IMG/VR virus record: IMGVR_UViG_3300048014_000015
Coordinates: 1 to 64,000 of that record
Source of the DNA: a virus
Length of the DNA: 64,000 nucleotides
Strand: one strand, 5' to 3'
The notes under the pieces are model-generated. The model saw only the letters and a list, made by a program, of their open reading frames with translations. It did no database searches and was not told the origin of the DNA. This document shows positions 4,722 to 30,884 of this stretch, piece by piece (within the stretch, counting starts at the first letter, position 1; the number at the start of each line of letters is the position of its first letter). The translations under genes were made by a program, and so were the position numbers.

Positions 4722-4753
4722 TTTATAATCTTCTAGATTTATTACCTATAAAG

Positions 4754-4862
4754 AATCTGAGTTAGGGCACAAACAAAAAAAGTACCCACGGTCACGGTCC
4801 GTGAGTACCTTAGTGTTTGGAATTCTAACGTTAGCTAGACGTAGAACGCCCTAACTCAGATT
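4754..4862. repeat. 15-bp perfect inverted repeat (4754-4768 / 4848-4862) enclosing the terminator
   Basis: aatctgagttagggc ... gccctaactcagatt with a 79-nt spacer. The spacer also contains the palindrome ctaacgttag. Confidence 0.8.
4775..4808 (-). terminator. rho-independent terminator (minus strand)
   Basis: Minus-sense GTACTCACGG-ACCGTGA-CCGTGGGTAC hairpin (10 bp, one mismatch) followed by T7 (A-run 4775-4781 on plus). Lies downstream of the 4928..5374 stop. Confidence 0.7.
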
Positions 4863-4927
4863 ACTTTAAGTATATTATTTATCTTATTTTTAGATTGTCA
4901 AGAGAATTTATTCTATAAATATAAAAT

Positions 4928-5374
4928 TTATTCTGGTTCACCTACAGGACTTTCAATTAGCCATTCATGCGAGTTTCCGGGATTTATTTCTCCACTCTGA
5001 TATAAACCATATTTCCACGGTAATCTAAATCTTGTTGGATCACGTTTCCATGTTTGAAGTTTACCAGATACACGAACTGGATGGGCTTCCCCCCTCCTAT
5101 TACGGGAAGTTCTATGGAAAAACGGCCCTAGTGATTTATTGTTTGCTAATCTCTCTTCTAATATCTTTTTTGTAACACTAGGTATAGCTAATACCCTTTG
5201 GGTAGGTGATAGACCTATATGTAAATCACCGTCGTAGTTTCTTAATCTATCTAATACTTTAGGATGTACTGTAGGATCATTATCCTCTAACCAATCTGCA
5301 AACACTTTTCTAGTAGTAATATCGTTAGGTTCTTTAATTAGTTTATCTATAAATGCTTGTCGATCTTCTCTCAT
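4928..5374 (-). CDS. TIGR02996-like (repeat-companion) domain protein
   Basis: N-terminus reads ...NDITTRKVFADWLEDNDP..., matching the D-x-x-x-R-L-V-[FY]-A-D-W-L-E-E-x-G-D-P signature. Confidence 0.7.
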   Translation of the reverse strand: MREDRQAFIDKLIKEPNDITTRKVFADWLEDNDPTVHPKVLDRLRNYDGDLHIGLSPTQRVLAIPSVTKKILEERLANNKSLGPFFHRTSRNRRGEAHPVRVSGKLQTWKRDPTRFRLPWKYGLYQSGEINPGNSHEWLIESPVGEPE

Positions 5375-7724
5375 GTTTTTTGACTTGACGAGCTAACTTA
5401 CGCCTAGGATTAATAAATTTACTATTTAAATTAGGGATTATTTCACCACCCTTATACTGACTACCCCTCACAATTATCCCACCCTTTGGTGCCCTATAAG
5501 CAGAGTTCTTTACCGGTTCTTCTGGTTCTTCCGGTTCCCCATCTGTAAGATTAAAATCCTCATCTGGGTTGTGCCATTCACCTATTTCTTCTGGATTCCG
5601 TCCCTTTGGATATGATTTATGACCTTGTTTTTTACCATTGTACCACTTCTTCTTGTCACCTTTATTTAATCCATCTGATGAAGCATATTTTTTGAGAGAA
5701 GGAATAGCCATAAGGTCTATGAGGTGGGTTCTGGATTTACGTTGTATAGGTGGCCACACCCTTTTAGTAGGTTTAGGGATATTAGGTGTAGGCTTATTAG
5801 TTCTACGTCTAAAATTTGTTATATGTATGTTGGCTTCTTCTGGTGAGATACCGTGTTTTTCTACTAAATAGTCCTTTAGGTTATTAGGTGCGGACCAACC
5901 TAATTCATTATGTTCGGCAATACTTTTATATATATCATTTCTATTAGGGTATGGTTTTCTTTTTACCCTAACCTCTGGAGGTATAATGTGAACAGGTTGA
6001 GGTAATTTAAATCCTAATTCATCAGGATTGGTTCCCGATTCTTCAGTTAATGGGAACTTTTCCGTACCCTTTAGTTCTTCATATGGAAATGCACCAGCTA
6101 ATTCTAGTGGGGTAGCGTGATGTTCTGGATTAGCTAAATCTACGTCTGTAGGATTACCAAATTGATATTGTTTATCATTAAAATGATATTGACCTAAATA
6201 ACGTACTAGACCAGCAACACCAGGAACTAGATATCTACCTAGTTGTGGATTTAGAAAGTGAGAGTGCCTACCTAATAGTCTTGCTGTTTCTATATATTTA
6301 CCTGTAATCGGATCACCAGGACCGTGAGTATTCAGGTAATTTCTAGCTACTTCCGCATATGCTGGTACATGATCCTTCATTACCCTATTCATGTAGTCCG
6401 GTTCTGATTCTCCACTACTTTTAGGAGGAACTAATCCCTCTTGTAACATTGCTCTATGAATAGCATCATTGAATACCTCATTTTCTACATGTGGTATATG
6501 TTTATTAGGTAAATATTTACCAATTATTGCATACCTTTTAATTAACCTACAACGTTTAAATTGTCCAGGTTGAATATTTGATAATACTGAATGTGTGTTT
6601 CTATTTCTAGCTCTTGGATTCCTCTCCCAAGCTGGAGTTTCATATTCTGGAACAGTATATTTTTCATTACCATGACGCCTAACAGTATTACCATCTTTAT
6701 CTACTTTCCAGTTTGTATTCTCCCTATGGTGTTCTGTTTCCGCATTACGTCTTAAAGAATCTTGAATATCTTTATAGGTATGATCTTTTAATGCTCCTGT
6801 ATGATATAGGTGCTTACGAATAGCTTCATACCATTGTTTACGTTGTTCTTCATTTACTCCACCTATACCGTGTTCAATACCATTATAAAATCTACGTTGT
6901 AATTGATGTTCTGGATGTATCCCCTTGGAAGCTTTACGAACGAACTGAGCTATAGCGGAATCTAGTGTTAATTTTTTACCAACATTATGCCAATTATATT
7001 GTGTAGCTAATTCATATGCTCGTCCTTTCTTGTTTCTATCATGTAACATTAATGCATTACGGAGTTCCACGAATTTATCTGGATAGAACGATCCACCCGC
7101 TTCTTGGGCTAATTGAGCTAAATGTTTATTAGACCCACCCAAAGATGGGTGATGTTCTATTTCATTTAGAACTATACCTAATCTGGAACCAGCTATTCCA
7201 GAAGAATAATTAGTAGTATCCCTGGCACGACTTACAGTTGTAGAAGCATATTTTTTAATTAACCTACGACGTTTAAATTGTCCAGGTTGATGGCCTAATA
7301 ACTCTGCTTGTCGTTCTAGGGGTAATTGATTAAATGCGTGTGCAGCAGCATCTTCGGCATGTTGTCTGGGACGATTAACAAATATTTTGGACTCTATACT
7401 ATTACTACCTGATAAGTGGTGTATGTAGTGTTGGTCGTGTCCTTGTACTAAATTAAGCCAATCTTTAGGGATTTCAAAATGACTTGAATCGGGTTCCAGT
7501 CCCAGTTCAAACCAAGTGTGATCTATATTAGTAGACTCTGGATCATCGATAAAATTGTATCTGTATCTATAGGGTTGCTTTTGTAATTTACCTAATGCTC
7601 GATACCCATTAGCTCTAGGATCACCACGTTCTTCTAACCAGTCAGCAAATACTAGTCTTGTATTGTGGTCATCAGGATTCTGGTCTAAGTGTCGTTGAAA
7701 GTCTTCTTCGCTAGTCATTACCAA
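5343..7724 (-). CDS. large TIGR02996-like domain protein (793 aa)
   Basis: N-terminus FQRHLDQNPDDHNTRLVFADWLEERGDPRANGYRAL. Internal repeat QPGQFKR[RC]RLIK[KR]YA occurs twice. Confidence 0.75.
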   Translation of the reverse strand: MVMTSEEDFQRHLDQNPDDHNTRLVFADWLEERGDPRANGYRALGKLQKQPYRYRYNFIDDPESTNIDHTWFELGLEPDSSHFEIPKDWLNLVQGHDQHYIHHLSGSNSIESKIFVNRPRQHAEDAAAHAFNQLPLERQAELLGHQPGQFKRRRLIKKYASTTVSRARDTTNYSSGIAGSRLGIVLNEIEHHPSLGGSNKHLAQLAQEAGGSFYPDKFVELRNALMLHDRNKKGRAYELATQYNWHNVGKKLTLDSAIAQFVRKASKGIHPEHQLQRRFYNGIEHGIGGVNEEQRKQWYEAIRKHLYHTGALKDHTYKDIQDSLRRNAETEHHRENTNWKVDKDGNTVRRHGNEKYTVPEYETPAWERNPRARNRNTHSVLSNIQPGQFKRCRLIKRYAIIGKYLPNKHIPHVENEVFNDAIHRAMLQEGLVPPKSSGESEPDYMNRVMKDHVPAYAEVARNYLNTHGPGDPITGKYIETARLLGRHSHFLNPQLGRYLVPGVAGLVRYLGQYHFNDKQYQFGNPTDVDLANPEHHATPLELAGAFPYEELKGTEKFPLTEESGTNPDELGFKLPQPVHIIPPEVRVKRKPYPNRNDIYKSIAEHNELGWSAPNNLKDYLVEKHGISPEEANIHITNFRRRTNKPTPNIPKPTKRVWPPIQRKSRTHLIDLMAIPSLKKYASSDGLNKGDKKKWYNGKKQGHKSYPKGRNPEEIGEWHNPDEDFNLTDGEPEEPEEPVKNSAYRAPKGGIIVRGSQYKGGEIIPNLNSKFINPRRKLARQVKKHERRSTSIYR

Positions 7725-8800
7725 TATCCTAATATAGTATCAAATACATTATACCACTGTTTACGACATTCTTCTTTATTCCAATTATATTGTTCTTCTA
7801 CCCTCATTCTACCATAGCTAGCAAGTTTAACCCTAAGTTCGTGATTAGTAACTAATTCTGTTAAAGAGTCATAAAAATCCAGATTATTATTACACTTTAG
7901 CCCATCAATACCATGCTGTATACAACTATATTCCCCCCAATCAGTAGCTAAGGGTACAGCACATAAAGCCCATGACTCCATAATCCGTAGATTAGACTTA
8001 CCCGCATTAAAGTTAATTGGCGATAGTGGAGCTAAATATATGTGAGGATTAATTGAACTTAGTATCTGATGGTAAGATACAAAAGGAACCATAGGCTGAT
8101 ATAATAGCCCTTTATGTAGGTATTTTCTTACAATACCTCCGTGTGGCATCATACCGGAAAATATTACTACAGCCCTATTTCCATTATTTAATCCACAATA
8201 TGTACTTAAAAACCTATCTAAAGGTTCTGTAATTTCGTCTACATCTCCCTTATGGGTTTCACTACCAACCCATACCACACGTACTGGGGTTTGTACTTTG
8301 ATGTTATATTGCTTTCCTCTACGTCCATCTAAATCTTCAAATTCTTCAGATTCTACATGAGGATACATACCTAAATCTAGTAAGTTTGGAGCTATCAGTA
8401 CTTTCTCTTTTACGTCTGAAAATGTAGTAGCTAAATACGGTGTTGATACTACAATCCAGTCAGATAGCTCTTTCATAATATCGTATACACATAATCCACC
8501 TTCATCTGGCCTAGCTGGATTCCAATTAGGAATAGTTAACCAATCATCATCAAGTGACCAAACAAATTTAGCCCCATTTCTACGAAGATGTTGAATCTCT
8601 AATAGGGTATTAGAAGCATTCTTTACATCTGGTAACCCACTAAAATAGTATACCCCTTTACCGAACGATGGTCCAGGACCAACCTCAAAATGCCAGTCTC
8701 TATCATACCTTTCGTGACAAAATCTAGCAGGTTGCAATACTCGATGGTAATTACATGCTCCATCGTTAGGGTAGAAAAAATACATAGTCTTTTTGGACAT
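7718..8800 (-). CDS. glycosyltransferase (GT-B fold, GT1/GT4-like)
   Basis: C-terminal half (GKSNLRIMESWALCAVPLAT...GIDG...LRVKLASYGRMRVEEQYNW) resembles the GT1/GT4 nucleotide-sugar binding domain. Confidence 0.6.
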   Translation of the reverse strand: MSKKTMYFFYPNDGACNYHRVLQPARFCHERYDRDWHFEVGPGPSFGKGVYYFSGLPDVKNASNTLLEIQHLRRNGAKFVWSLDDDWLTIPNWNPARPDEGGLCVYDIMKELSDWIVVSTPYLATTFSDVKEKVLIAPNLLDLGMYPHVESEEFEDLDGRRGKQYNIKVQTPVRVVWVGSETHKGDVDEITEPLDRFLSTYCGLNNGNRAVVIFSGMMPHGGIVRKYLHKGLLYQPMVPFVSYHQILSSINPHIYLAPLSPINFNAGKSNLRIMESWALCAVPLATDWGEYSCIQHGIDGLKCNNNLDFYDSLTELVTNHELRVKLASYGRMRVEEQYNWNKEECRKQWYNVFDTILGYW

Positions 8801-8836
8801 GGAAGAATCTTTCTTGAAAGAAATAACCTATATAAG

Positions 8837-10945
8837 TTAGCGATGACCAAACTCATCTATAATACGTTGATGTTCTTCAGGTGTTAAATATACTAAATGA
8901 GTAACTACGTTATTATATGGACCAGTAAGTAGACGGTAAGAATATACTGACGGTTCGTGGGTTTCTGGCGAATGACCACCCGCGTACAGCGGTGTATATG
9001 AGATTCTAAACGAATCCCCAGTATCTATATGATTGATCGATCCCTGACTTATAGGCCCTAGGTTATCATTATATGGTAGTAACCCGTTTATATGATTTGC
9101 TCTACCTTCATCCCACCCACCGGGATGGTTACTATACTGTAAATCCCTACGAACTATAATATGTCTCGGATCATCATAATCTTCAAATTTATCAGCTAAT
9201 ATACTATCAGCATGTCTATTACTACTAACTCCACCAACTTGACCAACGAATGGACGTATTTCATTCTCTGGTGCCCTACCGTATTTCTTAACCATAATAC
9301 GATTTAATCTTTTTTTATCTCTTGTATTCAATACCTTTTTATCTTGTGTTACCAGGTTAGGTTTAGATTGCAATGATCTATATCGAGTTATAATTCCTGA
9401 TGGTCCAGGTGGGCCGATTCCCTTTTCTTTAGAAATATGTATTAGGTTATTTTCTTGTGCATACCTTTCTGCTATATCTAGTGCTTTTCCTGTAAATTGT
9501 CCATTTTGTAACTGTCTTCTAGTAACATTCCCAAAACGATCAACATATGCTTTGAGTCTATGACCTAGTTCTTCTGGTGGTCGTAAATGTTGTGTACTCC
9601 TGAATATCTTGGTAGTTCTGACTCTGTTACGATTTCTTAGTTTTTCAATAAGTGGGGAATAGTGTGTTATTATACCGGTTGGTCCACCCTTTTTCTTAGA
9701 TATTTGTATTAGGTTATTTTCTTGTGCATATTTTTCTGCTATAGCCAATGCTTTTGGGGTGAATACACCAGTACGGTATAAATCGTTTTTCCCTAGTATT
9801 TTTCCTTTACGCTCTACAATAGTTTTTAATCTGTGTCCTAATTCTTCTGGTGGCCGTAAATGCTGTTTATCTTTATACCTGTTAACAGCCGCAATTCTTT
9901 GTCTTAATTGTGTAATACGTTTTTTAGCTTTATCACTCAAATTATCCATTATATCGTTACCCTTTTCAGAGTAACGTATCACTTTCCTACTTAATCTCTT
10001 TACACCTTTATGATCCCATAATTTACATCCCCAATTAGTCTTTACATTCATATGTACTTGATTGTTAAAGCAGTATAAATTACCACCACTTTTATCTGCT
10101 TTATGGTGTCTACCATACTTACACGACCCGCAAGATTTTCCAGATATAGACTTAGGTAGTACTACTAACTCTACTTTCTTAGCTCTATCTTTTTGTGCAG
10201 GAGTAAGGTTAGGTCTTCTATAGGTTATTACTTGTATACGTTTACGAGATAGTTTCTTAGGTTTCAATAATCTATTCTTAGTTTGTTTTGGTAAACTACT
10301 AAAGGCTAAAGCAGCAGCATCTTCTGAATTACGTCTACTAGTGTGATATCTCCAATTATTATTAGGGTCACTATATTGGTCGTGGTCGTAACGAGGGTGG
10401 TTATTAATAATTCTTCTTAACCAACTCTCTGGTAATGCTCCATTTATACCATACCAGGTGTAATTGTGTGAACTATTTTCATTTCTACCCCATACCCAAG
10501 TATCGTCAGGACTATATCTAGATTGATTAGGTCTTTTTTTTAATTGTACTAATGCTCTATACCCTTCTGCTCTAGGATCATTACGTTCTTGTAGCCAATC
10601 AGCAAATACAAGTCTTGTATGGTGGTCATCTGGGTTAGCGTCCAATAACTTATGAAAGTCTTCTTCAGTAACTTCGGTAGAATATCGCTTAGGCTTAATA
10701 CGAGATAGTTGTTTAGGTTTATTAGGAACCCACGGCATTATTACGGCACTTAACTGATGGGCAGGTCTACCAAACTCATCATTCTCCCCACCAAATGATA
10801 TAGGCTGATGTTGGGTGGGTCTACGTTGTTGTACCTGTTGAACTGCTGGTGGAGCAGAACCTTGAGATTTAGGTTTAGTCTGTACTGGTGTAGGAACAGG
10901 TACAGTTATTTGCTCAGTAGGTGTATTTCTGCTTATAACTGGCAT
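8837..10945 (-). CDS. large TIGR02996-like domain protein (702 aa) with an internal ~70-aa duplication
   Basis: aa ~94-135 read EEDFHKLLDANPDDHHTRLVFADWLQERNDPRAEGYRAL. Two repeats begin with QHLRPPEELGHRLK. Confidence 0.75.
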   Translation of the reverse strand: MPVISRNTPTEQITVPVPTPVQTKPKSQGSAPPAVQQVQQRRPTQHQPISFGGENDEFGRPAHQLSAVIMPWVPNKPKQLSRIKPKRYSTEVTEEDFHKLLDANPDDHHTRLVFADWLQERNDPRAEGYRALVQLKKRPNQSRYSPDDTWVWGRNENSSHNYTWYGINGALPESWLRRIINNHPRYDHDQYSDPNNNWRYHTSRRNSEDAAALAFSSLPKQTKNRLLKPKKLSRKRIQVITYRRPNLTPAQKDRAKKVELVVLPKSISGKSCGSCKYGRHHKADKSGGNLYCFNNQVHMNVKTNWGCKLWDHKGVKRLSRKVIRYSEKGNDIMDNLSDKAKKRITQLRQRIAAVNRYKDKQHLRPPEELGHRLKTIVERKGKILGKNDLYRTGVFTPKALAIAEKYAQENNLIQISKKKGGPTGIITHYSPLIEKLRNRNRVRTTKIFRSTQHLRPPEELGHRLKAYVDRFGNVTRRQLQNGQFTGKALDIAERYAQENNLIHISKEKGIGPPGPSGIITRYRSLQSKPNLVTQDKKVLNTRDKKRLNRIMVKKYGRAPENEIRPFVGQVGGVSSNRHADSILADKFEDYDDPRHIIVRRDLQYSNHPGGWDEGRANHINGLLPYNDNLGPISQGSINHIDTGDSFRISYTPLYAGGHSPETHEPSVYSYRLLTGPYNNVVTHLVYLTPEEHQRIIDEFGHR

Positions 10946-10974
10946 TGTACTTCTCTTAATTAACTTTTATAAGT

Positions 10975-11427
10975 TTATTGATTAGCTTCTCTAACTTCTC
11001 TATCAATATCATCTTGTTCAGCCTCTTTACTTTTACGTTCTTCATCTATACCGAGTTGCGTTATTTTTGGTTTTTTATGAATAGATAAAAACCCCTTATC
11101 TTGTAGTTCTTTTATCTCAGCAGGAGCTAAGTAAATGTGACGTTTTTTATCTAACATATCCCTATAAGCAGTTATTTGTTGACCATAGATTGAACCAAAT
11201 CCTTGCCATTTTTCTAAACGCTCTTTAGGAGAGCTATGACCATTTAAATCTCTCTTAAATGAGTGTTCATTAGTATACCCCTCATTATTACTCATATTAT
11301 CGGTAAACCTCTTTAAATCCTCACCGTTCCTAGAAAACGATAATATAAAGTCTCTACGTCTACTATACTTATTAACTACATTAAAGTACCTACTAATATC
11401 TCTTTGTCTCTTTATCAAATCCATCAT
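10975..11427 (-). CDS. hypothetical protein
   Basis: The ORF track starts it at TTG 11439. The first ATGs are at 11427/11424, preceded by GGTGGAG. Confidence 0.5.
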   Translation of the reverse strand: MMDLIKRQRDISRYFNVVNKYSRRRDFILSFSRNGEDLKRFTDNMSNNEGYTNEHSFKRDLNGHSSPKERLEKWQGFGSIYGQQITAYRDMLDKKRHIYLAPAEIKELQDKGFLSIHKKPKITQLGIDEERKSKEAEQDDIDREVREANQ

Positions 11428-11566
11428 TTTCTCCACCAAATAATATGGGTGAATGAACTTGAGGACGAACCTGTTTAGGTGCTTCTGACTGTGTTTTAGA
11501 CTGTACAGGCGTAGGTAAAGGAACCTGTATATTAGTTACAGGTTGGTTAGGATTAATAACAGGCAT
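11393..11566 (-). CDS. small hypothetical protein (57 aa), paralogue of the N-terminus of the 8837..10945 product
   Basis: MPVINPNQPVTNIQVPLPTPVQSK...PILFGGENDGF versus MPVISRNTPTEQITVPVPTPVQTK...PISFGGENDEF. TAATG stop/start overlap with the upstream gene. Below the ORF-track size cut-off. Confidence 0.45.
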   Translation of the reverse strand: MPVINPNQPVTNIQVPLPTPVQSKTQSEAPKQVRPQVHSPILFGGENDGFDKETKRY

Positions 11567-14304
11567 TACTTATAGCCCCTAAATGTTCTACGACGACGAC
11601 TATATAAATTTCTACCTGGACTATGTTTACCAATATTAATTTTAAGTTTCTTACCTGGATGCCCGCTAATATCCCAACTCCAATTATTGTTACCTTGTTT
11701 GGCTTTCATAGCTGCATTTATAATCGCATGCTTTAATAGGTTGTGTACTACAGGTATATGTTTTTTACCTAAACCTAAAAATTTAGCTAATGCTCTAGCA
11801 TGTGTGGTAGCGTGATTGTGTGCCCAACTATCAAGAGTATTATGTAATTGGTCATTAGGTGGTTGACTGTTATTAGGTGGTGTCGGTTGTGCAGCAGTCT
11901 TATGTGATTCTGGTAAATAAGGTAATTGATGTAATCCGTGTTCATCACCTCCCCTTACTTTACCTAATAAAGTAAGGGGAGATGGTTGTACGGTAGTCTT
12001 TTGTGGCTCTGGTAAGTAGGGTAGAGAATGATAACCAGCAGGGTCTTCCTCTTGATTTACCCTAGGTGGTGGGGAGTAGTTAGCTGGTCCATACATTGCT
12101 TCCATACCCATATCTAGGGCTGGATCATGCCATTTACTAGTTTTTGGTGAATCTATAACTTTAGGAAATTTAGGTACAGGTGGTTTACCTAAAGCATACC
12201 TTTTTAATAACCTATTACGTCTTTGTTGAATTGGGTCGTTTTCATGTTTCATAATTTTATTCCTAAAGGTGTCTCTAGCTTGTGCTTGATCTTGTGAACC
12301 TACTGTAAAAAAATGTCCTTGTGATGCTTCGATAGGTACTTTTTGTTGTTTAGCAAACTGATGTATAGTATTGGTATTTTGGTTACCCTTATCTGGTAAT
12401 AATATATCTAACCCCTTTTTATGTGGTACAAAGATTCTACTCATTATACCAAACCTATCAAGCTTTACTCGTGTCTCGTATCCAGAACCTTGCATCCGTA
12501 GACGATATAATGTATCTGGTCCACTAGGTCTAACATGAAATACACCATATCCAGGACTATTCGGTAATAATCCATTTACCCAACTACCTAGAGCATGTGC
12601 GGCATTGGGTTGTATTCTTCCATATACTGCCACCGCTACACCTGGAACGGATTGAGTAGGGGTATCGTGCAATGCAGGGAACTGTTTGGTCTTTTGTGCT
12701 CCAACTTTCTTAGCTAACTCCCGAGTACGTTGTACGAATATTTTATGTTCAGGACTACTCGCTTTTAATAGTGCACCAATAAAGTTAGACTTATTGGCTA
12801 ATGAGTACTTTCTAGGTAGCCTTTTACCATTGTCTCTTAGTGATCCATTACTAATTCTTACCCACCCATCATTCTGTTTAGGAAACACTTCTGCTTCATA
12901 AGTAACTTCACTAACGCCGGGTACTTCTTTAAACTTTTTTATAGGTAAATTATTATTTCCTTTACCCCAATTATCCCCATCACCGCCCACATACCACACA
13001 TGACTACCTTTAACAAATATCTGTCCATAACCCGGCATAGCACCATTTTTAGATAATAATTTACCTATAGAAGTTAATTTATTATAATCTAACTTTTTCT
13101 TCTTATACCGAGTAGCTATCTCATTTTGTTTATTAGTAGGATCATTATCGGACTTTTCATGCGGATTGTTTAACGCACTTTTAACACCCCTATATGGTGG
13201 ACTACCATGCCTATTACGTGCTGCTTCCTGAAGTCCCCTATACGCATGTCGTTGTATGGATTCTTCTATCTCTTTATCGCTTGATTCCGGTGATAGTTGT
13301 TTAATTCTGTTAAAAATTCCTATATATCTTGACCTATCGTATCGTGGGGTTCCAGGTTTAGTTCTTCTATCCGAGTCAGCTTCTACAGCGTAATACTCTG
13401 GTGAGTGGGAAAAAGGATTATTAATTGCCGTCACTGGCCTATTTTCTTCTGAAACCTTTCTGAGAACAGAGTAGGTATGTTGATCCAGGTGCAATTTATT
13501 AACTGCATTTAACCAATTATATTTAGCTTTTAATATTGGGTGTTTACTGTGATTTAGTTCATCGTGTAAACCCCATAAAGCCTCTGCATGTCCCCTAAGA
13601 ACTGCTACAGCTAAATTTCTAGCATCTGGTGTACTATGTTTACTATTAGCTATATGCCTTAAAGCATACTCAATAGGAAATCCACGTACTAATGGATGTG
13701 CTGGTTCTTTATATGGGAATCTAGCATATCTTTTAGGATTGTTACTTCTAGGATAAGCGGGTCTACCCTTTTTCTTTAAAAACTCAATAGGTTTAGTTCT
13801 ACGATGCATAGAATAGTAATCTTCTGGTATTGTCTCATCAGGTCGCCAATCTACTCCTTCTGCTTCTGGTGCTTTTCCTCCTAACCCATACATCCATAAA
13901 TGGTATTCAGATAATGGTTTACCGATGAGTTCCCTTGCTTCAGGTAACTTATCCCAATCACCATGTTCAGCTTCACTATGTGGTACTGCTTCTCCTGCAG
14001 ATTGCCATATATACTTGCCATTATGTTTTACAGGTTTATAACCCCTTACAACTTTCCAACCTCTTATAGATGATTGAGACTTACCGTATATCCCTGGTTT
14101 ATTAAGATCAGTATTTACTAATTCACTATACTTTATAGATTTAGTTCTACGATTCATATTAGTATATCCTAACCTATATAACAATCGTTGTAACAGCAGT
14201 AGTTTATTAGGTGGTAGTTCAAGATTAAGTCGCTTTAATTTCTTCTGTTCAAGAAGAAGTTCAGCAACTTTCTTTTCCATCTCCTTCCTGGTCATTATCC
14301 CCAC
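11566..14304 (-). CDS. large hypothetical protein (912 aa)
   Basis: Long uninterrupted ORF with basic K/R-Y-A/S motifs and an internal LPYLPE[PS].K repeat. No enzymatic motif recognised. Confidence 0.7.
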   Translation of the reverse strand: MGIMTRKEMEKKVAELLLEQKKLKRLNLELPPNKLLLLQRLLYRLGYTNMNRRTKSIKYSELVNTDLNKPGIYGKSQSSIRGWKVVRGYKPVKHNGKYIWQSAGEAVPHSEAEHGDWDKLPEARELIGKPLSEYHLWMYGLGGKAPEAEGVDWRPDETIPEDYYSMHRRTKPIEFLKKKGRPAYPRSNNPKRYARFPYKEPAHPLVRGFPIEYALRHIANSKHSTPDARNLAVAVLRGHAEALWGLHDELNHSKHPILKAKYNWLNAVNKLHLDQHTYSVLRKVSEENRPVTAINNPFSHSPEYYAVEADSDRRTKPGTPRYDRSRYIGIFNRIKQLSPESSDKEIEESIQRHAYRGLQEAARNRHGSPPYRGVKSALNNPHEKSDNDPTNKQNEIATRYKKKKLDYNKLTSIGKLLSKNGAMPGYGQIFVKGSHVWYVGGDGDNWGKGNNNLPIKKFKEVPGVSEVTYEAEVFPKQNDGWVRISNGSLRDNGKRLPRKYSLANKSNFIGALLKASSPEHKIFVQRTRELAKKVGAQKTKQFPALHDTPTQSVPGVAVAVYGRIQPNAAHALGSWVNGLLPNSPGYGVFHVRPSGPDTLYRLRMQGSGYETRVKLDRFGIMSRIFVPHKKGLDILLPDKGNQNTNTIHQFAKQQKVPIEASQGHFFTVGSQDQAQARDTFRNKIMKHENDPIQQRRNRLLKRYALGKPPVPKFPKVIDSPKTSKWHDPALDMGMEAMYGPANYSPPPRVNQEEDPAGYHSLPYLPEPQKTTVQPSPLTLLGKVRGGDEHGLHQLPYLPESHKTAAQPTPPNNSQPPNDQLHNTLDSWAHNHATTHARALAKFLGLGKKHIPVVHNLLKHAIINAAMKAKQGNNNWSWDISGHPGKKLKINIGKHSPGRNLYSRRRRTFRGYK

Positions 14305-15200
14305 CCTATTTCATTTATTGCTGGGTATATTAAATCACTGGGATTATCAAGATTGATTTTACTTAATTCTTCTTTCCATACAGATTCAATTCTTGGTGTA
14401 ACTACATCTGTAGGTAAATCGTGATTCTGGTGGACGACAATCGCTGACTCATTAGAACAGGTATAGTTCGCTATACCTAATACCCTACGTCTATGCATCC
14501 AACCAACATCACAACTACCCCACATTGATGTATTAATCATACCTCCGAGTCTCTTCCATGTTTCTCTACTATGTCCCCCAAATATCCAGGATTCCCAAGT
14601 TGGTATACGACTACCCGGCTGAGCTACGATATCAGTAGCTCTATGTGAAAAGTCAGGGTGTCCATTAGTATCATCTTCATAAAACCTATCAATATCTCTT
14701 ACCGCTAGTAGTCCCTTTTCTATCCATTGTACACTATCCAACAATACCTGTTCTTTGGGAGAAAGATAGTATGATCTACAACAGGCGTATAAACCTATAG
14801 GGGTTCGTTTATCAGTTGGTCCCTGATCTATTCTAACTTTTTCAAATTCATCTAATTTCTTTACACAATCCAAAACACTAGTCCTACCAACCATAATTTC
14901 AGGATGGGTAAGTATTATGTGTCTACCTTGTGAGACACGAATACCGTGATTAATGGTTGCAGCACAATCACGCCATTTTTCTTGCTTAGGGTGTGGTGTG
15001 AGTATGGTTGTTTTAATACCAGTACGATGTGACCAGCTATCAACCAGAGCATAGGTACAGTCGGTAGAACTATCGTCTACCACTACCAACTCAAATAGGT
15101 TTTTTGGAAATTCTTGTTTCTCATAACACATTAAGGAACGTTCTAGTAAATGACTACGGTTATATGTAGCCATAACAACTGAACAAATAATCTTATCCAT
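14295..15200 (-). CDS. glycosyltransferase family 2
   Basis: N-terminus CSVVMATYNRSHLLERSL...LVVVDDSSTDCT is the classic GT2 (GT-A, DxD) signature. Confidence 0.85.
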   Translation of the reverse strand: MDKIICSVVMATYNRSHLLERSLMCYEKQEFPKNLFELVVVDDSSTDCTYALVDSWSHRTGIKTTILTPHPKQEKWRDCAATINHGIRVSQGRHIILTHPEIMVGRTSVLDCVKKLDEFEKVRIDQGPTDKRTPIGLYACCRSYYLSPKEQVLLDSVQWIEKGLLAVRDIDRFYEDDTNGHPDFSHRATDIVAQPGSRIPTWESWIFGGHSRETWKRLGGMINTSMWGSCDVGWMHRRRVLGIANYTCSNESAIVVHQNHDLPTDVVTPRIESVWKEELSKINLDNPSDLIYPAINEIGWG

Positions 15201-15217
15201 ATATCTACTCTTTGAAA

Positions 15218-15493
15218 TTATTTTTTATTTGTAAGTTCTTCAATCTTTTCTTTTATAGCGTCATAATCCTCTGTCTTAATAGAGTCCATTTGTCCTATTA
15301 TTTCCCCCTTGATATCATAATAGGTTGTCCATAATGGACCAACCACCACCTTATAAACCTTGTTGTGTACCTTTTTAATATATACGGGTTTATCAGGTTG
15401 GTCTTTGACTGCTAAAAAACCTATACTATCCCAACCACTTTTATAAAGTAGGTTGATAACAATATCCCTACAATCAGTCATAATTGTAGACAT
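15218..15493 (-). CDS. hypothetical protein
   Basis: 91-aa ORF tightly packed between enzyme genes. Confidence 0.6.
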   Translation of the reverse strand: MSTIMTDCRDIVINLLYKSGWDSIGFLAVKDQPDKPVYIKKVHNKVYKVVVGPLWTTYYDIKGEIIGQMDSIKTEDYDAIKEKIEELTNKK

Positions 15494-15495
15494 TA

Positions 15496-16074
15496 CTATT
15501 TCCTTTTATGGTATAGCCAAACATCATGGGGAGAGTACCACCATCCAGGTAATAACTCGTCTACTGCTTTCTTAACACCAGGCCAAACCCTCTCATCGTC
15601 TTTTTCCGTTGATGTACCTACATCATCTCCCGCTATTATACCATTTATCTTAATTTTTGGGAGCCATGCTTTTATTTCTTGAGAGAGATGATTATAGGTG
15701 TGCTGTGTATCCAGGAATAGGAAGGATATACTGTTATTAGGGAATAAAGATGCTGCTCTTATAGAATCGTATACCAATATTGATACTATATCCTGTAACC
15801 CACAGTTATAAACATTAGATATCAATTCAATTGATATCAATCTATTATTATTTATGCTCTGGTTTAAACCTAAACAATTATCTATACCTATCACATTCCA
15901 GGGCTTACCAGATTCTTTAACTCTCTCACCCAGATAACATAATGACCTACCAAGTAGACAACCACATTCTATAAGTAGTCCACCCTCATCAGGACATGCC
16001 AGGTGTTCAATGATATTATCGTAGGTTTCTTTATAATCAAAGAATCCTGTAATATTGTGCCATCGGGTAATCAT
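15496..16074 (-). CDS. class I SAM-dependent methyltransferase (Methyltransf_24 / sugar O-MTase-like)
   Basis: LIECGCLLGRSLCYLG (motif I-like) and FLFLDTQHTYNHLSQEI...GIIAGDD. Confidence 0.7.
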   Translation of the reverse strand: MITRWHNITGFFDYKETYDNIIEHLACPDEGGLLIECGCLLGRSLCYLGERVKESGKPWNVIGIDNCLGLNQSINNNRLISIELISNVYNCGLQDIVSILVYDSIRAASLFPNNSISFLFLDTQHTYNHLSQEIKAWLPKIKINGIIAGDDVGTSTEKDDERVWPGVKKAVDELLPGWWYSPHDVWLYHKRK

Positions 16075-16084
16075 AGGTTCTCTG

Positions 16085-17563
16085 TTAGTTTAATATCCCT
16101 ATACCCATCCATTGTTCATCATCACTTCTAATAAACTCAATGGCTGGGCGAGTTTTCTTTAGTTCGCGGTAGAGTGTTGGTGTGCCGCCATTTTGGGCTT
16201 CTCTCTTTACACAGGCATCTTTGATATCGTGAAACATTACTAAAGGAGAATCTTTTAATCTTTCATAATCCGATTTAGCAGCATTGTAATTATGGTCAGC
16301 ATCTATAATCACTAAATTAAAATCCCTACCACTAAAGTCATTAGACGTTACACCATACTTATACTCAAGTCCCGGTAATTGTATTGGTGGTTCATACTTA
16401 TATAGGTCAATTGCTGTATATATTATATCATCAATAAATTTACCTATATAAGTATGAAGTATAGCACTTAAGTAACCGTGAAAACACCCCACCTCTAGTA
16501 TACGAAAACGACCATACCCAGTAATTTCTAGACTCAACCATATTAGAAAGTGTGCTAATTCTTCTGGATGCTGCCACAATCCAGGACGTTTTAATGGTGC
16601 TTTAGCAAATTCCCACTCACCATACATCGGTCTACCATCGTTATACAGTCCTACAGAGGCTAGTAAACTTGATAAATATTGTGGATTCCTTAACTGTTGG
16701 TATGTGCTAGAATTTAGCTTTTCTAGTGTAGTTTCTAGTCTATTGGATGGGTTGGGTGTGAGCATTTTATAAGCATCTAGTAAAGTACCATCTTCTAATC
16801 CTGCTCCACGTTGAGAATAGAAAGCATAATGTACGAATGGACCGCAACTACCAGCAATTACGTTAGGTCTACTTACTCTTTTGGGTTCTTGGTGGGCTAA
16901 CCAGGCCTCTTCATCATTAGACATGGTATTAGCCCACACCGCACAATCAGAACCCAACCAACTGATAACATTGATCGAATGTCTTAGGTAATCTGGTGGC
17001 CCTAAAACAATATCTGGTAGGTGCCAACTATCTGGATTAGGGTCGTTAATAAAATCTTGATGTAATAACCTAACAAACTCTGACGAACCCCAACCTACTT
17101 GATCCATACACCCTACACCAACTGTTCCACGAGATAACGGAATACGACCTAATTTCTGATGTTCTCTTGATGTAAGGGCAGTATTGATTACATTGCCATA
17201 AACTAAGAAAGGATGTTGATTTTCTATACGACAATTAGCAAGTGCTTTTATTGCTCCAGGATGGTAGTAAACAATATCGTCATCAAGTCTGATATATACG
17301 GTGTCTTTGTCGGTACTATGTGGAAAGAACTTATGTATCCGGTAGGCCACCGGATGATATATCGGTTCTGGTATTTGGACCAATTGACATTTTGGATGCT
17401 TGCATAATTCATGTATGTAGTCTATATCAGGTTGGTGGTCAGTGTTTAGCCATATATCCCACCTATCTACGTCAAGATCAGCAAGCAATCTAGGTGCAAG
17501 TACCCCCATATACTGGTTACGACCAGCGGGAGTACATACTACTACTTTATAACCTTTAATCAT
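16085..17563 (-). CDS. two-domain protein: N-terminal glycosyltransferase-like (DxD) domain fused to a C-terminal class I SAM methyltransferase
   Basis: N-terminal part has VVVCTPAGRN...YIRLDDDIVYY. C-terminal part has RILEVGCFHGYLS...LVIIDADHNYNAAKSDYERL...MFHD. Confidence 0.65.
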   Translation of the reverse strand: MIKGYKVVVCTPAGRNQYMGVLAPRLLADLDVDRWDIWLNTDHQPDIDYIHELCKHPKCQLVQIPEPIYHPVAYRIHKFFPHSTDKDTVYIRLDDDIVYYHPGAIKALANCRIENQHPFLVYGNVINTALTSREHQKLGRIPLSRGTVGVGCMDQVGWGSSEFVRLLHQDFINDPNPDSWHLPDIVLGPPDYLRHSINVISWLGSDCAVWANTMSNDEEAWLAHQEPKRVSRPNVIAGSCGPFVHYAFYSQRGAGLEDGTLLDAYKMLTPNPSNRLETTLEKLNSSTYQQLRNPQYLSSLLASVGLYNDGRPMYGEWEFAKAPLKRPGLWQHPEELAHFLIWLSLEITGYGRFRILEVGCFHGYLSAILHTYIGKFIDDIIYTAIDLYKYEPPIQLPGLEYKYGVTSNDFSGRDFNLVIIDADHNYNAAKSDYERLKDSPLVMFHDIKDACVKREAQNGGTPTLYRELKKTRPAIEFIRSDDEQWMGIGILN

Positions 17564-17891
17564 TTTTTACCCATTTGTTGTGGTGGTCACATGGGTACAA
17601 CTCATCCCACCTTTTACCTAATATATCTCGTGTTAGGTTTCTACCAGGACTATAAAAATAACTTCTAAAAGTATCTATAAATTCTCTTAAATTGTGCCAC
17701 TCTTCTACATGTCCTGGATGATCTTCTAAAAAGTCGGCAATAATACCAGATAATTGACCATCTACTCTACCATCAGTTCTTTGCCATTGAGCGTATAAAT
17801 TATAAAATTCTTCTGAACACTTAACATATTCTCCCACCATTAAAGAAGGATTATAAAAATAAAAGCCTTTTGAGAGAAATTCATTTCCCAT
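17556..17891 (-). CDS. hypothetical protein
   Basis: 111-aa ORF with an 8-nt overlap with the downstream gene. Confidence 0.6.
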   Translation of the reverse strand: MGNEFLSKGFYFYNPSLMVGEYVKCSEEFYNLYAQWQRTDGRVDGQLSGIIADFLEDHPGHVEEWHNLREFIDTFRSYFYSPGRNLTRDILGKRWDELYPCDHHNKWVKND

Positions 17892-17934
17892 ATCTATAAT
17901 CTCATAGGTTATATATTATGGGCTATTTATAAAG

Positions 17935-19011
17935 CTATTTAAGTAATCCTTTAATTAGTGTTCTAAATTTATCAGCATTATCATGCCATGATACACAGTA
18001 TTTATCGAATTGTCCGTAAGTCGGTTCATATCCACTACCGTTGATAATTTCGTTCCATATTCTGCCTAGTTTTTCCTGTTCAAAATTGTGTTGAGCATTG
18101 CTAGCTCTTGTATGCAGTATAGTTGAACCACCTGTATAACACGCCCAATTTAATTTATCAAAATCATATTTTAGTCTTCGCCCCATCCATATATCACCAA
18201 ACCTATTAAGAGTTGGAATCTTTCCAGTACCCTTACATTTAGAACAGGGTTCGGTTTTCAGGTTGTCATTACCATTACATAAAGGACATTGACCAGTAAT
18301 ACCTGTATCTGGTCCCATAGGTGCAAAATAAAGGTATGGTAGTGCCTCTACCTTTACCATTACGTTCATCCCACATAAGGGAAATAAAGTTCCCCCAGGT
18401 ATTGGACCAACATAGTACGGTAGTGTTCCGGGAATACCTTGACCGCTTTCCAGTTTTAATTGTGTCTCACCGTCAAAATCTGGAACACCAATCCATACAC
18501 CGTGAGATAGCATTACTGGAGATTCATTCCGTATGCTGTACGGAACACCCCTAAGATATAGGTCGGTATCATGTGCTGTATTCATCCACGATAAAGGTAC
18601 TCGTTTTTGAAGTACATCCAGGTGCTGTTGTATAGGATCATTAAATGGTTCTGGATTAGCCAGTATTCCATTAAATTTTTGGTTTAGTGGTACGGGAGCT
18701 ACATCATCATCTAATGTCAAAATGTGTGTAGGTTTTAATGTTCCTGCTAATATAAATCCTAAATTTCTAACTGAATCAGTTTTTCGATATATCAGACTTT
18801 TATACTTTTCATATAACGTCCCACCATCCTTCTTCAATTCAATTTTATCTTTATAATTGTAAACAGCTACTTCCGGTATATCTCCATCCCATACCGTAAT
18901 TAAAGTAACCTCATGTCTATTAAATAGAAAATCCCAAGCTTTTAGGAATGTTTTATACTGCTCTACTCGAATAGTTGGAATTACTACAACAATCTTGTTA
19001 GGTTTAGTCAT
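17935..19011 (-). CDS. GT75 / reversibly-glycosylated-polypeptide (UDP-arabinopyranose mutase)-like protein with an inserted CxxC zinc finger
   Basis: VVVIPTIR, WDGD, TLDDDV, RGVPYSIRNESPVMLSHGVWIGVPDFDGETQL, IPGGTLFPLCGMN, RFGDIWMG and HTRASN match the plant RGP signature blocks. Start moved to ATG 19011 because the track's N-terminal extension overlaps tRNA-Leu. Confidence 0.8.
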   Translation of the reverse strand: MTKPNKIVVVIPTIRVEQYKTFLKAWDFLFNRHEVTLITVWDGDIPEVAVYNYKDKIELKKDGGTLYEKYKSLIYRKTDSVRNLGFILAGTLKPTHILTLDDDVAPVPLNQKFNGILANPEPFNDPIQQHLDVLQKRVPLSWMNTAHDTDLYLRGVPYSIRNESPVMLSHGVWIGVPDFDGETQLKLESGQGIPGTLPYYVGPIPGGTLFPLCGMNVMVKVEALPYLYFAPMGPDTGITGQCPLCNGNDNLKTEPCSKCKGTGKIPTLNRFGDIWMGRRLKYDFDKLNWACYTGGSTILHTRASNAQHNFEQEKLGRIWNEIINGSGYEPTYGQFDKYCVSWHDNADKFRTLIKGLLK

Positions 19012-19035
19012 AATGTTTAACCCATGGGTTAGGTG

Positions 19036-19117
19036 TGGTAGTGGTGGGAATCGAACCCACAAGCTTTTCAGCGACCGATTTTAAATCGATTGTGTTTACC
19101 AGTTTCACCACACTACC
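19036..19117 (-). tRNA. tRNA-Leu (anticodon UAA), type II with long variable arm
   Basis: Manual cloverleaf: acceptor GGTAGTG/CACTACC, 3-bp D stem, anticodon loop TTTAAAA, variable arm GCT-GAAA-AGC, T arm GTGGG-TTCGATT-CCCAC. No encoded CCA. Confidence 0.85.
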
Positions 19118-21568: not shown

Positions 21569-21949
21569 TTAGATTATATCTTCTTGATCCCACTTAGATG
21601 GAGGATTGTTCGTTTGTGGTGGGTAGTCATCTTTATTGGTATCATCACCAAGATCGTTTATTTGATATTCGATATCTCTTTCTAGCACCTTATGTATCAT
21701 TAGTTCTTCCTTATGTATTTCTTTAAGAACGGTAAAGTCCACAACATACGCCGCTATAATCTCACTTAATAATATAAAATTTGGTGTATTAGATATATTA
21801 TTAACACTCACGTATTTGCGTGATGGTGTTGTTCTACCTAATTCACTCGTAATATTTGTAACGTTGTTCTCTGCTTGTGACCTATCTTTACAATATACTG
21901 TTAACTGTCCATTTTTAGTCCACACACAAGTTGCCCATTTGTATTTCAT
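21569..21949 (-). CDS. hypothetical protein
   Basis: Start moved to the internal ATG (MKYKWATCVW) at 21949, abutting the stop of the upstream gene (21951). Confidence 0.55.
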   Translation of the reverse strand: MKYKWATCVWTKNGQLTVYCKDRSQAENNVTNITSELGRTTPSRKYVSVNNISNTPNFILLSEIIAAYVVDFTVLKEIHKEELMIHKVLERDIEYQINDLGDDTNKDDYPPQTNNPPSKWDQEDII

Positions 21950-21950
21950 C

Positions 21951-22595
21951 TTAACTCCAATATAATGGATCACTAGAAAATCTATAACGACTAGCTTGTC
22001 TACGTTTAGAAAATCTACCTGGCTCGTCATTCTCTATTAAGTGGTCAATCAACATATGTCGGGGTGAGTCTTCATGTGGGTTCTCTAGAACTGCCTTTCC
22101 TAGCTGTTCTGACTCGGAAGTGTGAGGTAGGTTATAAGAATGAAGTCCTTGAGCTCCATTACCTATACCCCTGGTTGTATGTCTGCCATCGGGTGCCCTA
22201 TAATCTATTATTATGCGTTTACCATGTGGATGCTCTGGGTCATGTATTTGATTTAATAAAACGTGGTGACCATTTATATTTAAAAACATTCCACCTCTAA
22301 CCATATTTTCTAGTAAATCTCGGTATCTGCCATACATTATTAAATTTGTATTGTGTTGATCTTCGTTATCGTATTCGTCCCAAGGATAACCTACGTGTTC
22401 CTGGTGGTTTTTGGACAATACCCTATAACCTGTATTAGGAAAATCTTCATGACTATCAAACTTACCCCTGATAAAAAGGTAGTCGTGATATGCTCCTGGA
22501 ATATGTACCTGAGTCCTTGACTCATGACCTAAATCTTCAGTTTTAGTTATAGCATTTAATCTATTTAGATGTTCTCTTATCTGTGGTGGTATCAT
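21951..22595 (-). CDS. hypothetical protein with a degenerate C-terminal TIGR02996-like motif
   Basis: C-terminus reads LENPHEDSPRHMLIDHLIENDEP. Confidence 0.6.
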   Translation of the reverse strand: MIPPQIREHLNRLNAITKTEDLGHESRTQVHIPGAYHDYLFIRGKFDSHEDFPNTGYRVLSKNHQEHVGYPWDEYDNEDQHNTNLIMYGRYRDLLENMVRGGMFLNINGHHVLLNQIHDPEHPHGKRIIIDYRAPDGRHTTRGIGNGAQGLHSYNLPHTSESEQLGKAVLENPHEDSPRHMLIDHLIENDEPGRFSKRRQASRYRFSSDPLYWS

Positions 22596-25492: not shown

Positions 25493-25496
25493 ATAG

Positions 25497-25569
25497 TCTT
25501 CCCGGTGCGACTTGAACGCACAACATACGTCTTAGAAGGACGTTACTCTATCCATTGAGTTACGGTAGG
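25497..25569 (-). tRNA. tRNA-Arg (anticodon UCU), weak acceptor stem
   Basis: D arm ACTC-AATGGATA-GAGT, anticodon arm ACGTC-CTTCTAA-GACGT, T arm GTGCG-TTCAAGT-CGCAC. Acceptor CCTACCG/CGGGAAG pairs only 5 of 7. Confidence 0.6.
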
Positions 25570-30855: not shown

Positions 30856-30884
30856 GATCTTACCACAGTGGTCAAGGTGATCCA

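Follow-up and report, generated by a model that had tools for sequence, protein, structure and literature searches.

A predicted glycan-building and methylating gene cassette interleaved with genes for giant polyvalent-type proteins between the portal and scaffold genes of a phage

The interval between the portal and scaffold genes

We analysed a 64,000-nucleotide stretch of the IMG/VR virus record IMGVR_UViG_3300048014_000015 (positions 1 to 64,000, hereafter the window), and in particular the block at 4928-19011, where genes for predicted glycosyltransferases (GTs) and methyltransferases lie among genes for three giant proteins, between the portal gene and a scaffold-like gene. The window represents almost the whole phage genome, and an identical portal is on record in a 64,312-bp contig. 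The minus strand carries everything from 341 to 30678, and the transcription order starts with the small terminase, two tRNAs, a TIGR02996 protein, the large terminase, the portal, a tRNA-Leu and the block, followed on its 3' side by the scaffold-like gene, a 145-aa gene and the probable capsid gene, with the tail genes running round the contig end. The portal protein (19119-20675, minus strand) is of the Mu type (Pfam Portal_Mu 137 bits, PHROG 113, 268 homologues) and heads the transcription unit of the block. From there to the scaffold-like gene (2598-4721) there are 15 minus-strand open reading frames (ORFs) plus the tRNA-Leu, tightly packed, with block genes overlapping or separated by gaps of at most 43 nt, and with intact, translationally coupled reading frames. 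An earlier sequence-only reading of this DNA had placed its ORFs correctly, all on the minus strand, and its description of a single strand with little intergenic space and of three giant proteins was borne out, the latter measuring 912, 702 and 793 aa. The portal-to-leader interval is one tightly packed transcription unit, with the portal first and a leader with terminator before the scaffold and capsid genes.

For comparison with relatives, the DNA downstream of portal homologues was taken at falling identity. At 77% portal identity (L001) the order is mutase, methyltransferase, GT2, 912-like, 702-like, GT-B and 793-like gene, and at 62% (L003/L094) the same order is followed by the leader, scaffold, capsid and tail genes. 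At 50% (L005) there is no mutase, and split GT and methyltransferase genes are found with the GT2, 912-like, GT-B and 793-like genes. At 41-42% (L006 and L007/L099) no sugar or methyl enzyme is present, while approximately 9 kb still separates the portal from the scaffold; in L006 and L007 these 9 kb encode homologues of both core domains of the 912-aa protein, as well as proteins of 938 and 882 aa with an ADWLEE motif and the C-terminal Y-x-A-P-x-G-G of the 793-aa protein. In a distant relative on a short contig (L102, 17-1144) the portal is directly followed by the scaffold N-terminal domain, which confirms for the wider family the premise that portal and scaffold genes are normally adjacent. 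The idea of a single accessory block had to be given up, as relatives devoid of sugar genes encode the large proteins too. From this comparison of gene content, the block is best described as a glycan cassette interleaved with older polyvalent-type proteins (912, 702, 793 and 148 aa) rather than as one accessory insertion. Since L102 is compact, L006 and L007 lack GTs, and L001, L003 and L005 have sugar genes, the relatives therefore form a series, from adjacent portal and scaffold genes via a large-protein module to sugar genes in one clade at three places.

The block is separated from the scaffold-like gene by a boundary element (4750-4905, minus strand), consisting of a promoter-like site, TTGACA-16-AATAAT at 4901-4874, which matches 11 of 12 promoter positions, and a structured leader of approximately 115 nt with a fold energy of -55.6 kcal/mol (z -9.6). 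Within this leader lies a terminator-like hairpin (4811-4779, 13-bp stem and T-run). The sequence-only reading had noted a terminator at 4775-4808, and this is indeed the only strong such site on the minus strand within 1-20 kb, but it makes up just the inner hairpin of a conserved leader of larger size, located downstream of a promoter-like site. Ahead of the scaffold gene in L094, L096 and L097 the TTGACA, the outer stem and the UUUUUYGUUU tract are all kept, and compensatory changes were found in 7 of the 13 outer-stem pairs in three relatives. This layout recalls the lambda PR'-tR' region, where antitermination controls the late genes. At the other end of the block, a tRNA-Leu (anticodon UAA; ARAGORN, Rfam tRNA 59.9 bits) occupies 19035-19117 on the minus strand, between the portal and the mutase. 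Because of its position the mutase start is the ATG at 19011 and not the TTG at 19062. The portal-mutase junction has been rearranged, since the tRNA-Leu is upstream of the mutase here and downstream in L001 (13021-13102).

The predicted sugar and methyl enzymes

The first gene of the block (17935-19011, minus strand) encodes a GT75 (RGP-like) nucleoside diphosphate (NDP)-sugar pyranose/furanose mutase of 358 aa, scoring 83.5 bits with Pfam RGP (PF03214, curated cut-off 23.8 bits). It matched the UDP-arabinopyranose mutase 8cid in the PDB at 2e-9 as a single sequence and at 3.9e-24 with a profile, and the profile matched MtdL (7xpr) at 4e-19. A total of 242 homologues was found, and among the matches listed those on long contigs were all on phage-size contigs; a profile search of 185,579 GTDB species genomes gave no relative, and a literature search on GT75/RGP gave no paper linking the family to phages. 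In 28 aligned phage homologues, D101-D103 (DxD), R154, R161, D178/D180, R270, D273, H300 and R302 are invariant, and D79 and R82 show a conservation of 90% or more. When aligned onto MtdL, these residues match D87, R90, D109-111, R159, D195, R257, D260, H287 and R289: D79 and R82 are the counterparts of D87 and R90, D178/D180, R270, D273, H300 and R302 are those of D195, R257, D260, H287 and R289, and the DxD and R154 regions align with MDDD and RGFPF of MtdL. R154 and R161 sit in the sequence RGVPYSIR, and R158 of OsUAM1 and R159 of MtdL served as reference for the nucleophilic, autoglycosylated arginine. The matching MtdL residues bind Mn or phosphate, or act as nucleophile or base (PMC9937993).

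The sequence-only reading had suggested an arabinose-containing glycan, and this part of it was dropped. GT75 substrates vary, with UDP-L-Ara used in plants and GDP-L-Gal and GDP-L-Fuc by the two characterised bacterial members (PMC9937993), and the sugar-contacting S228-Q229 of MtdL are replaced by G214-M215 in the phage mutases, the plant enzyme having G-I. An assignment of arabinose from the RGP match was rejected, since known substrates and specificity residues both differ, and for the same reason the product can only be predicted as an NDP-furanose. It is a safe prediction from the alignments that the mutase is a real GT75 family enzyme making such a product. The mutase of the window also contains a DnaJ-type CxxCxGxG zinc-ribbon insert at residues ~239-268 (~18208-18297), with RtpA and DnaJ matches, which is missing from the consensus of the 28 homologues and from most homologues. 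The mutase of L003 (11820-13991; the same gene is present in L004) has an intein of ~355 aa with a LAGLIDADG endonuclease domain, inserted at the segment corresponding to the sugar-binding site of the mutase, which points to a conserved and selected site. Both the intein and the zinc-ribbon insert speak for selection on the mutase gene.

The other enzymes form a small set. The 192-aa S-adenosylmethionine (SAM)-dependent methyltransferase (15496-16074, minus strand) is of the Methyltransf_24 or rhamnosyl-O-methyltransferase-like type (PF13578, 55.6 bits with a cut-off of 26.3 bits), is near the threshold for RMNT_CmcI (PF04989, 22.2 bits), and has orthologues adjoining the mutase in L001, L003, L011 and L012. 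The GT2 enzyme (14295-15200, minus strand; 301 aa, GT-A fold, soluble) scored 44.3 bits with Glycos_transf_2 (PF00535, cut-off 23.3 bits), gave EpsD/EpsE-type matches with its N-terminal part, and is 47-72% identical in L001, L003 and L005. A GT4-like GT-B enzyme of 360 aa is encoded at 7718-8800 (minus strand) and matched the glycosyltransferase PHROG 7162 at 2.3e-26. In Pfam alone it is below threshold, while a profile of four orthologues matched the GT1/GT4 C-terminal domain 5i45 at 6e-6; its gene is always located between the 912-like and 793-like genes, with 39-69% identity in L001, L003 and L005. The fifth gene (16085-17563, minus strand) combines a GT-A-like domain (~1-270, with the DxD sequence RLDDDIV; glycosyltransferase PHROG 4447 at 5e-5) and a methyltransferase domain (~330-492, Methyltransf_24 18.9 bits). 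The latter includes GCFHG and IDADH, which we take to be the SAM-binding loop and the metal site of class I metal-dependent O-methyltransferases. Both halves are below the Pfam thresholds, and a PDB search with this protein found no match. We nevertheless regard the fusion as real, because its halves occur as separate ORFs of 277 and 235 aa in L005; the N-terminal half is 25% identical to proteins of Synechococcus phages B3/B23. The assignment of five enzymes in the sequence-only reading therefore stands at the family level, with the reservation that the fusion halves, and the GT-B in Pfam alone, remain sub-threshold. The highest 19-residue Kyte-Doolittle window in the block proteins is at most 1.35, and the six enzyme proteins have no membrane-spanning segment. 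Two small ORFs between the enzyme genes, of 111 aa (17556-17891) and 91 aa (15218-15493), both on the minus strand, had no family match in Pfam or PHROG.

The methyltransferase and mutase genes travel together in at least four phage lineages, and in every lineage sampled they are inside a virion module. They follow the portal in the window, in L009, accompanied by two GT2-like genes, they lie immediately ahead of the scaffold and capsid genes, they precede the scaffold in L011, and they lie between tail-fibre-like genes in L012. On a 39-kb viral contig (L010, 2694-10981) a distant GT75 enzyme (26%) is found in a run with two radical-SAM and two Methyltransf_24 enzymes, which is a different sugar-tailoring cassette round the same GT75-methyltransferase pair. 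Because the family tests were passed, the order is conserved, the GC content at third codon positions (GC3) matches and the mutase of a relative contains an intein, the sugar set appears to be a maintained and functional set of glycan-building and methylating genes.

Giant proteins and a shared tripeptide motif

The remaining large genes of the block, all on the minus strand, encode basic proteins. The 912-aa protein (11566-14304; isoelectric point 10.0, no Cys) is of the polyvalent type, with conserved domains at ~186-375 and ~495-690. It is followed by a 154-aa basic protein (10975-11439) with one KYS motif at residue 24, and by the 702-aa protein (8837-10945), which has a TIGR02996 domain at 94-134, a Cys-rich segment and a tandem duplication of ~90 aa. 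The 793-aa protein (5343-7724) has an N-terminal TIGR02996 domain and a C-terminal Y-x-A-P-x-G-G...Y-x-G-G sequence, and a 148-aa TIGR02996 protein (4928-5374) is the last of the unit. The isoelectric points of the giant proteins are 9.4-10.1, and they have almost no cysteine and no membrane segments. TIGR02996 scores were 43.3 bits for the 702-aa, 43.1 for the 793-aa and 31.8 for the 148-aa protein, and 36.7 for a 200-aa protein encoded at 24373-24975 (NCBIfam cut-off 29.05 bits), while the domain was not found in the 912-aa protein. Hence the giant TIGR02996 proteins of the sequence-only reading are the 702- and 793-aa proteins, with the 148-aa protein in addition, but not the 912-aa protein. 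Further TIGR02996-type proteins outside the block are encoded at 24373-24975, at 33032-33925 and possibly by the C-terminus of 21951-22595, giving at least five paralogues in the genome, and in L008 three such proteins lie in a row just upstream of the mutase.

The 702-aa protein is 48% identical in L001. Within it, at ~366-545 (~9311-9850), a unit of ~90 aa is duplicated in tandem (QHLRPPEELGHRLK...AEKYAQENNLI...GIITHY), which looks like a winged-helix DNA-binding module, and segments similar to this unit are present in the giant proteins of L006 and L007. A 57-aa ORF (11393-11566, minus strand) directly 3' of the 912-aa gene is paralogous to the first 60 residues of the 702-aa protein (BLASTP 52%, 1e-12) and resembles its Pro/Thr/Gln-rich N-terminus. 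This Pro/Thr/Gln-rich segment precedes an RYS at residue 87, and would be lost if that motif were a cleavage site.

An exhaustive HMMER search with the 912-aa protein gave 277 relatives, mostly of 600-3700 aa and chiefly sharing the ~495-690 domain. Among 30 of these, Pfam identified ART-PolyVal in two, 2H/LigT in four, Acb1 in one and a portal fusion in one, with amidoligase and helix-turn-helix (HTH) domains also present. An AlphaFold2 model of residues 486-711, built from 26 sequences, reached a pLDDT of 91.5 and a pTM of 0.81; the ~495-690 domain had no PDB match by sequence or fold, but in BFVD the model matched phage proteins longer than 1000 aa that bear the names 'Large polyvalent protein associated domain' and 'RelA/SpoT' (probability 1.0, TM 0.41-0.52). 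A PDB search with the 793-aa protein found no match. None of the three giant proteins matched a peptidase family, the zincin-like MPTase domain included, and a known enzymatic effector domain was not detected in them. Phage polyvalent proteins are encoded beside portal or virion genes, packaged in the head and injected, with P1 DdrB being cut before packaging (PMC5512222). The proteins described here are likewise large and multi-domain, are encoded in the portal unit, and have domains in common with recognised polyvalent modules. By this analogy, the giant proteins are probably of the polyvalent type, packaged in the head and injected.

A tripeptide motif, [KR]-Y-[A/G/S], is common to these proteins and the scaffold-like protein (2598-4721, minus strand; 707 aa, acidic), which matched DUF6496 only and has a conserved domain at ~17-156. 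When compared with the expectation from shuffled sequences, the scaffold has seven copies (0.9 expected), the 702-aa protein seven (0.9), the 912-aa protein four (1.3) and the 793-aa protein three (1.0). The six non-enzyme proteins from portal to scaffold together have 23 copies vs 4.2 expected, an enrichment of approximately 5-fold, whereas the other 46 ORFs of the window have 12 vs 11.0 expected. The mutase, GT2, methyltransferase and GT-B have none, and the GT-methyltransferase fusion has a single copy, at chance level. The motif is usually preceded by a basic, proline-containing stretch. In the 912-aa protein the sites at 58, 192, 499 and 702 flank the conserved domains, with 499 in a low-confidence linker of the model; in the 702-aa protein RYS at 87 directly precedes TIGR02996, the 793-aa protein has [KR]YA at 158, 397 and 679, and in four proteins the motif is located 5-8 residues N-terminal of a TIGR02996 domain. 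Relatives are enriched as well, including those without GTs, where small proteins between portal and capsid have the motif at residues 12-18, like a leader. In 150 listed members of the 912-aa family there were 409 copies where 132 were expected, and of 120 domain copies, 43 had the motif close to their N-terminal border. We read the motif as a candidate cleavage or targeting signal in head maturation. A glycosylation sequon was also considered and rejected, since the motif is independent of the sugar genes, being equally enriched in relatives without any of them.

The scaffold N-terminal domain has an invariant G-H71 and R-S128-x-E in an alignment of 12 divergent sequences, and in L102 it is in the position of a protease, directly after the portal. 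An AlphaFold2 model of this domain from five sequences had a pLDDT of 35. On the grounds of the invariant His71 and Ser128 and of synteny, it is a possible prohead protease and a candidate for the enzyme cutting at the motif.

Possible functions of the block

We give an even chance to the prediction that the cassette glycosylates virion proteins in the cytoplasm with a glycan that is methylated and includes a furanose. What favours virion proteins is the location of the cassette in virion modules and the absence of membrane segments and of a base-hydroxylating enzyme, and soluble GT2, GT-B and GT-A-like domains are linked to head or fibre modules in four lineages, as expected for virion glycosylation genes. 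In the proposed mechanism there would be two layers. In the first layer, large proteins carrying host-like TIGR02996 domains and winged-helix-like repeats would enter the procapsid, be cleaved at [KR]-Y-[A/G/S] in their interdomain linkers, most likely by the scaffold-fused His/Ser domain, and be injected along with the phage DNA. The second layer, which one clade would have acquired afterwards, is a glycosylation pathway of soluble enzymes in the cytoplasm: the Mn-type GT75 mutase would turn a host NDP-pyranose into an NDP-furanose, the DxD GT-A-like, GT2 and GT4-like GT-B domains would build a short glycan, and the two metal-dependent-type SAM O-methyltransferase domains would methylate it. 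The acceptors would be virion proteins made at the same time, either on the capsid or fibre surface or among the packaged giants, and a glycan coat like that of mycobacteriophages and chloroviruses would be the outcome. Of this scheme, the enzyme families, the conserved catalytic residues, the synteny, the polyvalent-type fold and the enrichment of the motif are shown, and we infer packaging, cleavage, sugar identity and acceptor. A more far-reaching version, in which the GT75 mutase of a probable Gemmatales phage clade puts a methylated furanose glycan on the head-carried, injected giants themselves, these being a new polyvalent class that is split at [KR]-Y-[A/G/S] by a scaffold-fused protease instead of a peptidase of its own and delivers host-mimicking TIGR02996 domains, is a doubtful one.

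Several points weigh against virion glycosylation and the scheme built on it. No acceptor sequence was identified, and L006 and L007 are without sugar genes, so that the glycan is dispensable for building the particle. The leader with its promoter and terminator parts the block from the capsid genes, and the timing of the block may differ from that of the capsid. The tripeptide motif was noticed post hoc and homologous proteins do not supply independent instances of it, and for the scaffold N-terminal domain neither Pfam nor PDB gave a protease match in searches with a 6-sequence and a 12-sequence profile. Phages that glycosylate their DNA likewise employ furanose donors, mutases and GT-B enzymes (PMC13326640). 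As relatives without the cassette exist, the glycan would be an optional coat and not a requirement for assembly.

An alternative we consider unlikely is that the cassette glycosylates the phage DNA, its GT-B and GT-A enzymes placing the furanose from the mutase onto modified bases, with the sugar being methylated, which would block host nucleases. DNA glycosylation by GT-B enzymes is known with UDP-arabinofuranose in RB69 and DLP3 and with galactofuranose, made via a phage mutase, in RL38J1 (PMC13326640), so that these clusters share the furanose donor, the GT-B transferases and, for RL38J1, the phage sugar mutase with the block; the GT-B enzyme has distant relatives in large coliphages and in one 595-kb metagenomic phage, and enzyme content varies among the relatives of the window, as under defence pressure. 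However, the known systems need a hydroxyl handle, provided by a thymidylate-synthase homologue or by a 5-methylcytosine methylase plus a TET-type oxidase (PMC13326640), and Pfam searches of the listed ORFs of at least 100 aa (a few overlapping ones excepted) found no base-hydroxylating family, and no dCTPase or deoxynucleoside monophosphate kinase either. The RB69, DLP3 and RL38J1 clusters have the thymidylate-synthase homologue (for 5-hydroxy- or 5-hydroxymethyl-cytosine) and nucleotide kinases, none of which were found here; the mutase of RL38J1 is an FAD-type UDP-galactopyranose mutase and not GT75, and the cassette is located in the virion modules of four lineages and not beside replication or nucleotide genes. 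Rather improbable is also an action of the enzymes on a host protein during takeover, or the production of a methylated furanosyl metabolite. MtdL and Hyg20, the only characterised bacterial GT75 enzymes, belong to nucleoside-antibiotic pathways with GTs and O-methyltransferases (PMC9937993), in the L010 locus the mutase is accompanied by two methyltransferases and a pair of radical-SAM enzymes, and the neighbouring giant proteins are of a conflict or takeover type. The cassette, however, has no scaffold-forming biosynthetic genes and is consistently within structural modules, and its enzymes are without the packaging-associated motif and are thus probably not delivered early.

We see very little likelihood in modification of the host envelope, in the form of serotype conversion or superinfection exclusion. 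GtrB-type GT2 enzymes modify the host envelope in temperate enterobacterial phages (cited in PMC12619734), but a Gtr-type module, with GtrA flippase, membrane-anchored GtrB and polytopic GtrC, was not recovered here: hydropathy is at most 1.35, the six enzyme proteins have no membrane-spanning segment, and Pfam scans detected no such family and no flippase, polyprenol-linked component or integrase. The genes are also inside the head-gene unit, and the mutase is in no GTDB species genome, hence there is no sign of lysogeny. The idea of a recent, non-functional foreign insertion, which the sequence-only reading proposed to examine by synteny, is scarcely credible. It could draw on the GC content of the block, which at 0.36-0.38 is slightly lower than the 0.39-0.41 of the flanking head genes, and on the tRNA at the junction, which could mark a recombination site. 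The gene order is however conserved from 77% to 50% portal identity, the catalytic residues are invariant in the 28 aligned of 242 mutase homologues, the frames are intact and translationally coupled, and the sugar genes have a GC3 of 0.24-0.30, in line with the remaining genome; such an insertion was rejected on conserved synteny and GC3.

Virion glycosylation remains our preferred reading, and has a precedent reportedly described by Freeman and co-workers in 2023 (cited in PMC12619734) for the mycobacteriophages Che8, Corndog and Myrna. As in those phages, soluble phage-encoded GTs, some accompanied by methyltransferases, would be expressed together with structural genes, with a virion glycan as the product proposed here. 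The cassette differs in its furanose-forming GT75 mutase, in the phylum of the host and in the interleaved giant-protein genes, and no sequence relationship with the mycobacteriophage enzymes has been shown. When compared with the plant UAM/RGP enzymes (8cid) and with MtdL/Hyg20 (7xpr), the phage mutase has kept the DxD, the nucleophilic Arg and the Mn/phosphate-binding His and Arg, while it is phage-encoded, has G-M for S228-Q229 and contains a zinc-ribbon insert. The GT-methyltransferase fusion resembles A064R of chlorovirus PBCV-1, a GT-GT-methyltransferase protein that builds a methylated capsid glycan in the cytoplasm and belongs to a virus of a eukaryotic host, in combining a DxD GT-like domain with a sugar methyltransferase; this likeness is one of architecture only, with no sequence similarity detectable in the PDB search with the fusion. 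The giant proteins resemble described polyvalent proteins in being very large, multi-domain and encoded beside portal or virion genes, and in the company of ART-PolyVal, 2H phosphoesterase, RelA/SpoT-named and HTH domains, and differ in that no MPTase domain was detected, that a linear motif shared with the scaffold marks domain borders, and that they have TIGR02996 domains (PMC5512222).

With regard to the host, a TIGR02996-like domain was found in 432 places in GTDB genomes, and the best 80 of these 432 matches were mostly from Planctomycetota, especially Gemmatales (Limnoglobus, Gemmata, Fimbriiglobus, Zavarzinella), with some from Myxococcota. Close portal homologues came from peat, soil and freshwater samples and from one Sphagnum assembly. 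In addition to tRNA-Leu, the window encodes tRNA-Arg-UCU (25496-25569) and tRNA-Ile-UAU (25663-25733), and the three tRNAs read UUA, AGA and AUA, codons that account for much of the Leu, Arg and Ile usage in the phage genes. The GC content of the phage, 37%, is low if its hosts are of the GC-rich Gemmatales type; three tRNAs for A-ending codons would fit a GC-rich host. The host is probably a planctomycete of the Gemmatales.

Phage-encoded glycosylation and packaged polyvalent proteins are known in kind. New elements are the combination of a phage GT75 mutase and a methyltransferase as a mobile cassette in virion modules, for which the GT75/RGP literature search gave no phage link, the interleaving of this cassette with polyvalent-type proteins, a candidate linear processing code instead of a built-in peptidase, and the use of TIGR02996 by a phage, a domain not mentioned in the literature searched. 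To our knowledge, experimental proof of glycosylated phage particles is limited to a few actinobacteriophages, very little work exists on phages of Planctomycetota, and TIGR02996 has no known role. The locus is a strong candidate for a second case of particle glycosylation that differs in its chemistry, and if this is true, the cassette would widen the chemistry and host range of this modification with a small set of genes. Similarly, the block may represent a compact system for the loading, cutting and injection of giant phage proteins, and could give a first functional handle on TIGR02996, which is abundant in Gemmatales genomes.

Outside the block, the gene at 968-2062 (minus strand) is the probable major capsid protein by its position after the scaffold, with orthologues 61-70% identical at the same place, and had no match in Pfam and PHROG family scans. 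Single-protein scans of IMG/VR with the portal and the capsid gave no match, and INPHARED matches to the window proteins were remote only. Replication genes in the window include a family A polymerase, an AAA_24 protein and a PD-(D/E)XK nuclease, and no integrase was seen in Pfam scans of the ORFs. The large terminase (22614-24323) and a 153-aa protein encoded two genes downstream (21569-22030) have a C-terminal tail motif in common, ending in ...SPSKWDRGDIT and ...PPSKWDQEDII, respectively. Finally, the region 30880-32800 is an island of 49-55% GC in this 37% GC genome, with plus-strand ORFs and a direct repeat of 45-88 nt present three times, ending just 5' of the start codons at 30923, 31259 and, more loosely, 32375. 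These repeats are probably repeated early promoter or leader elements.

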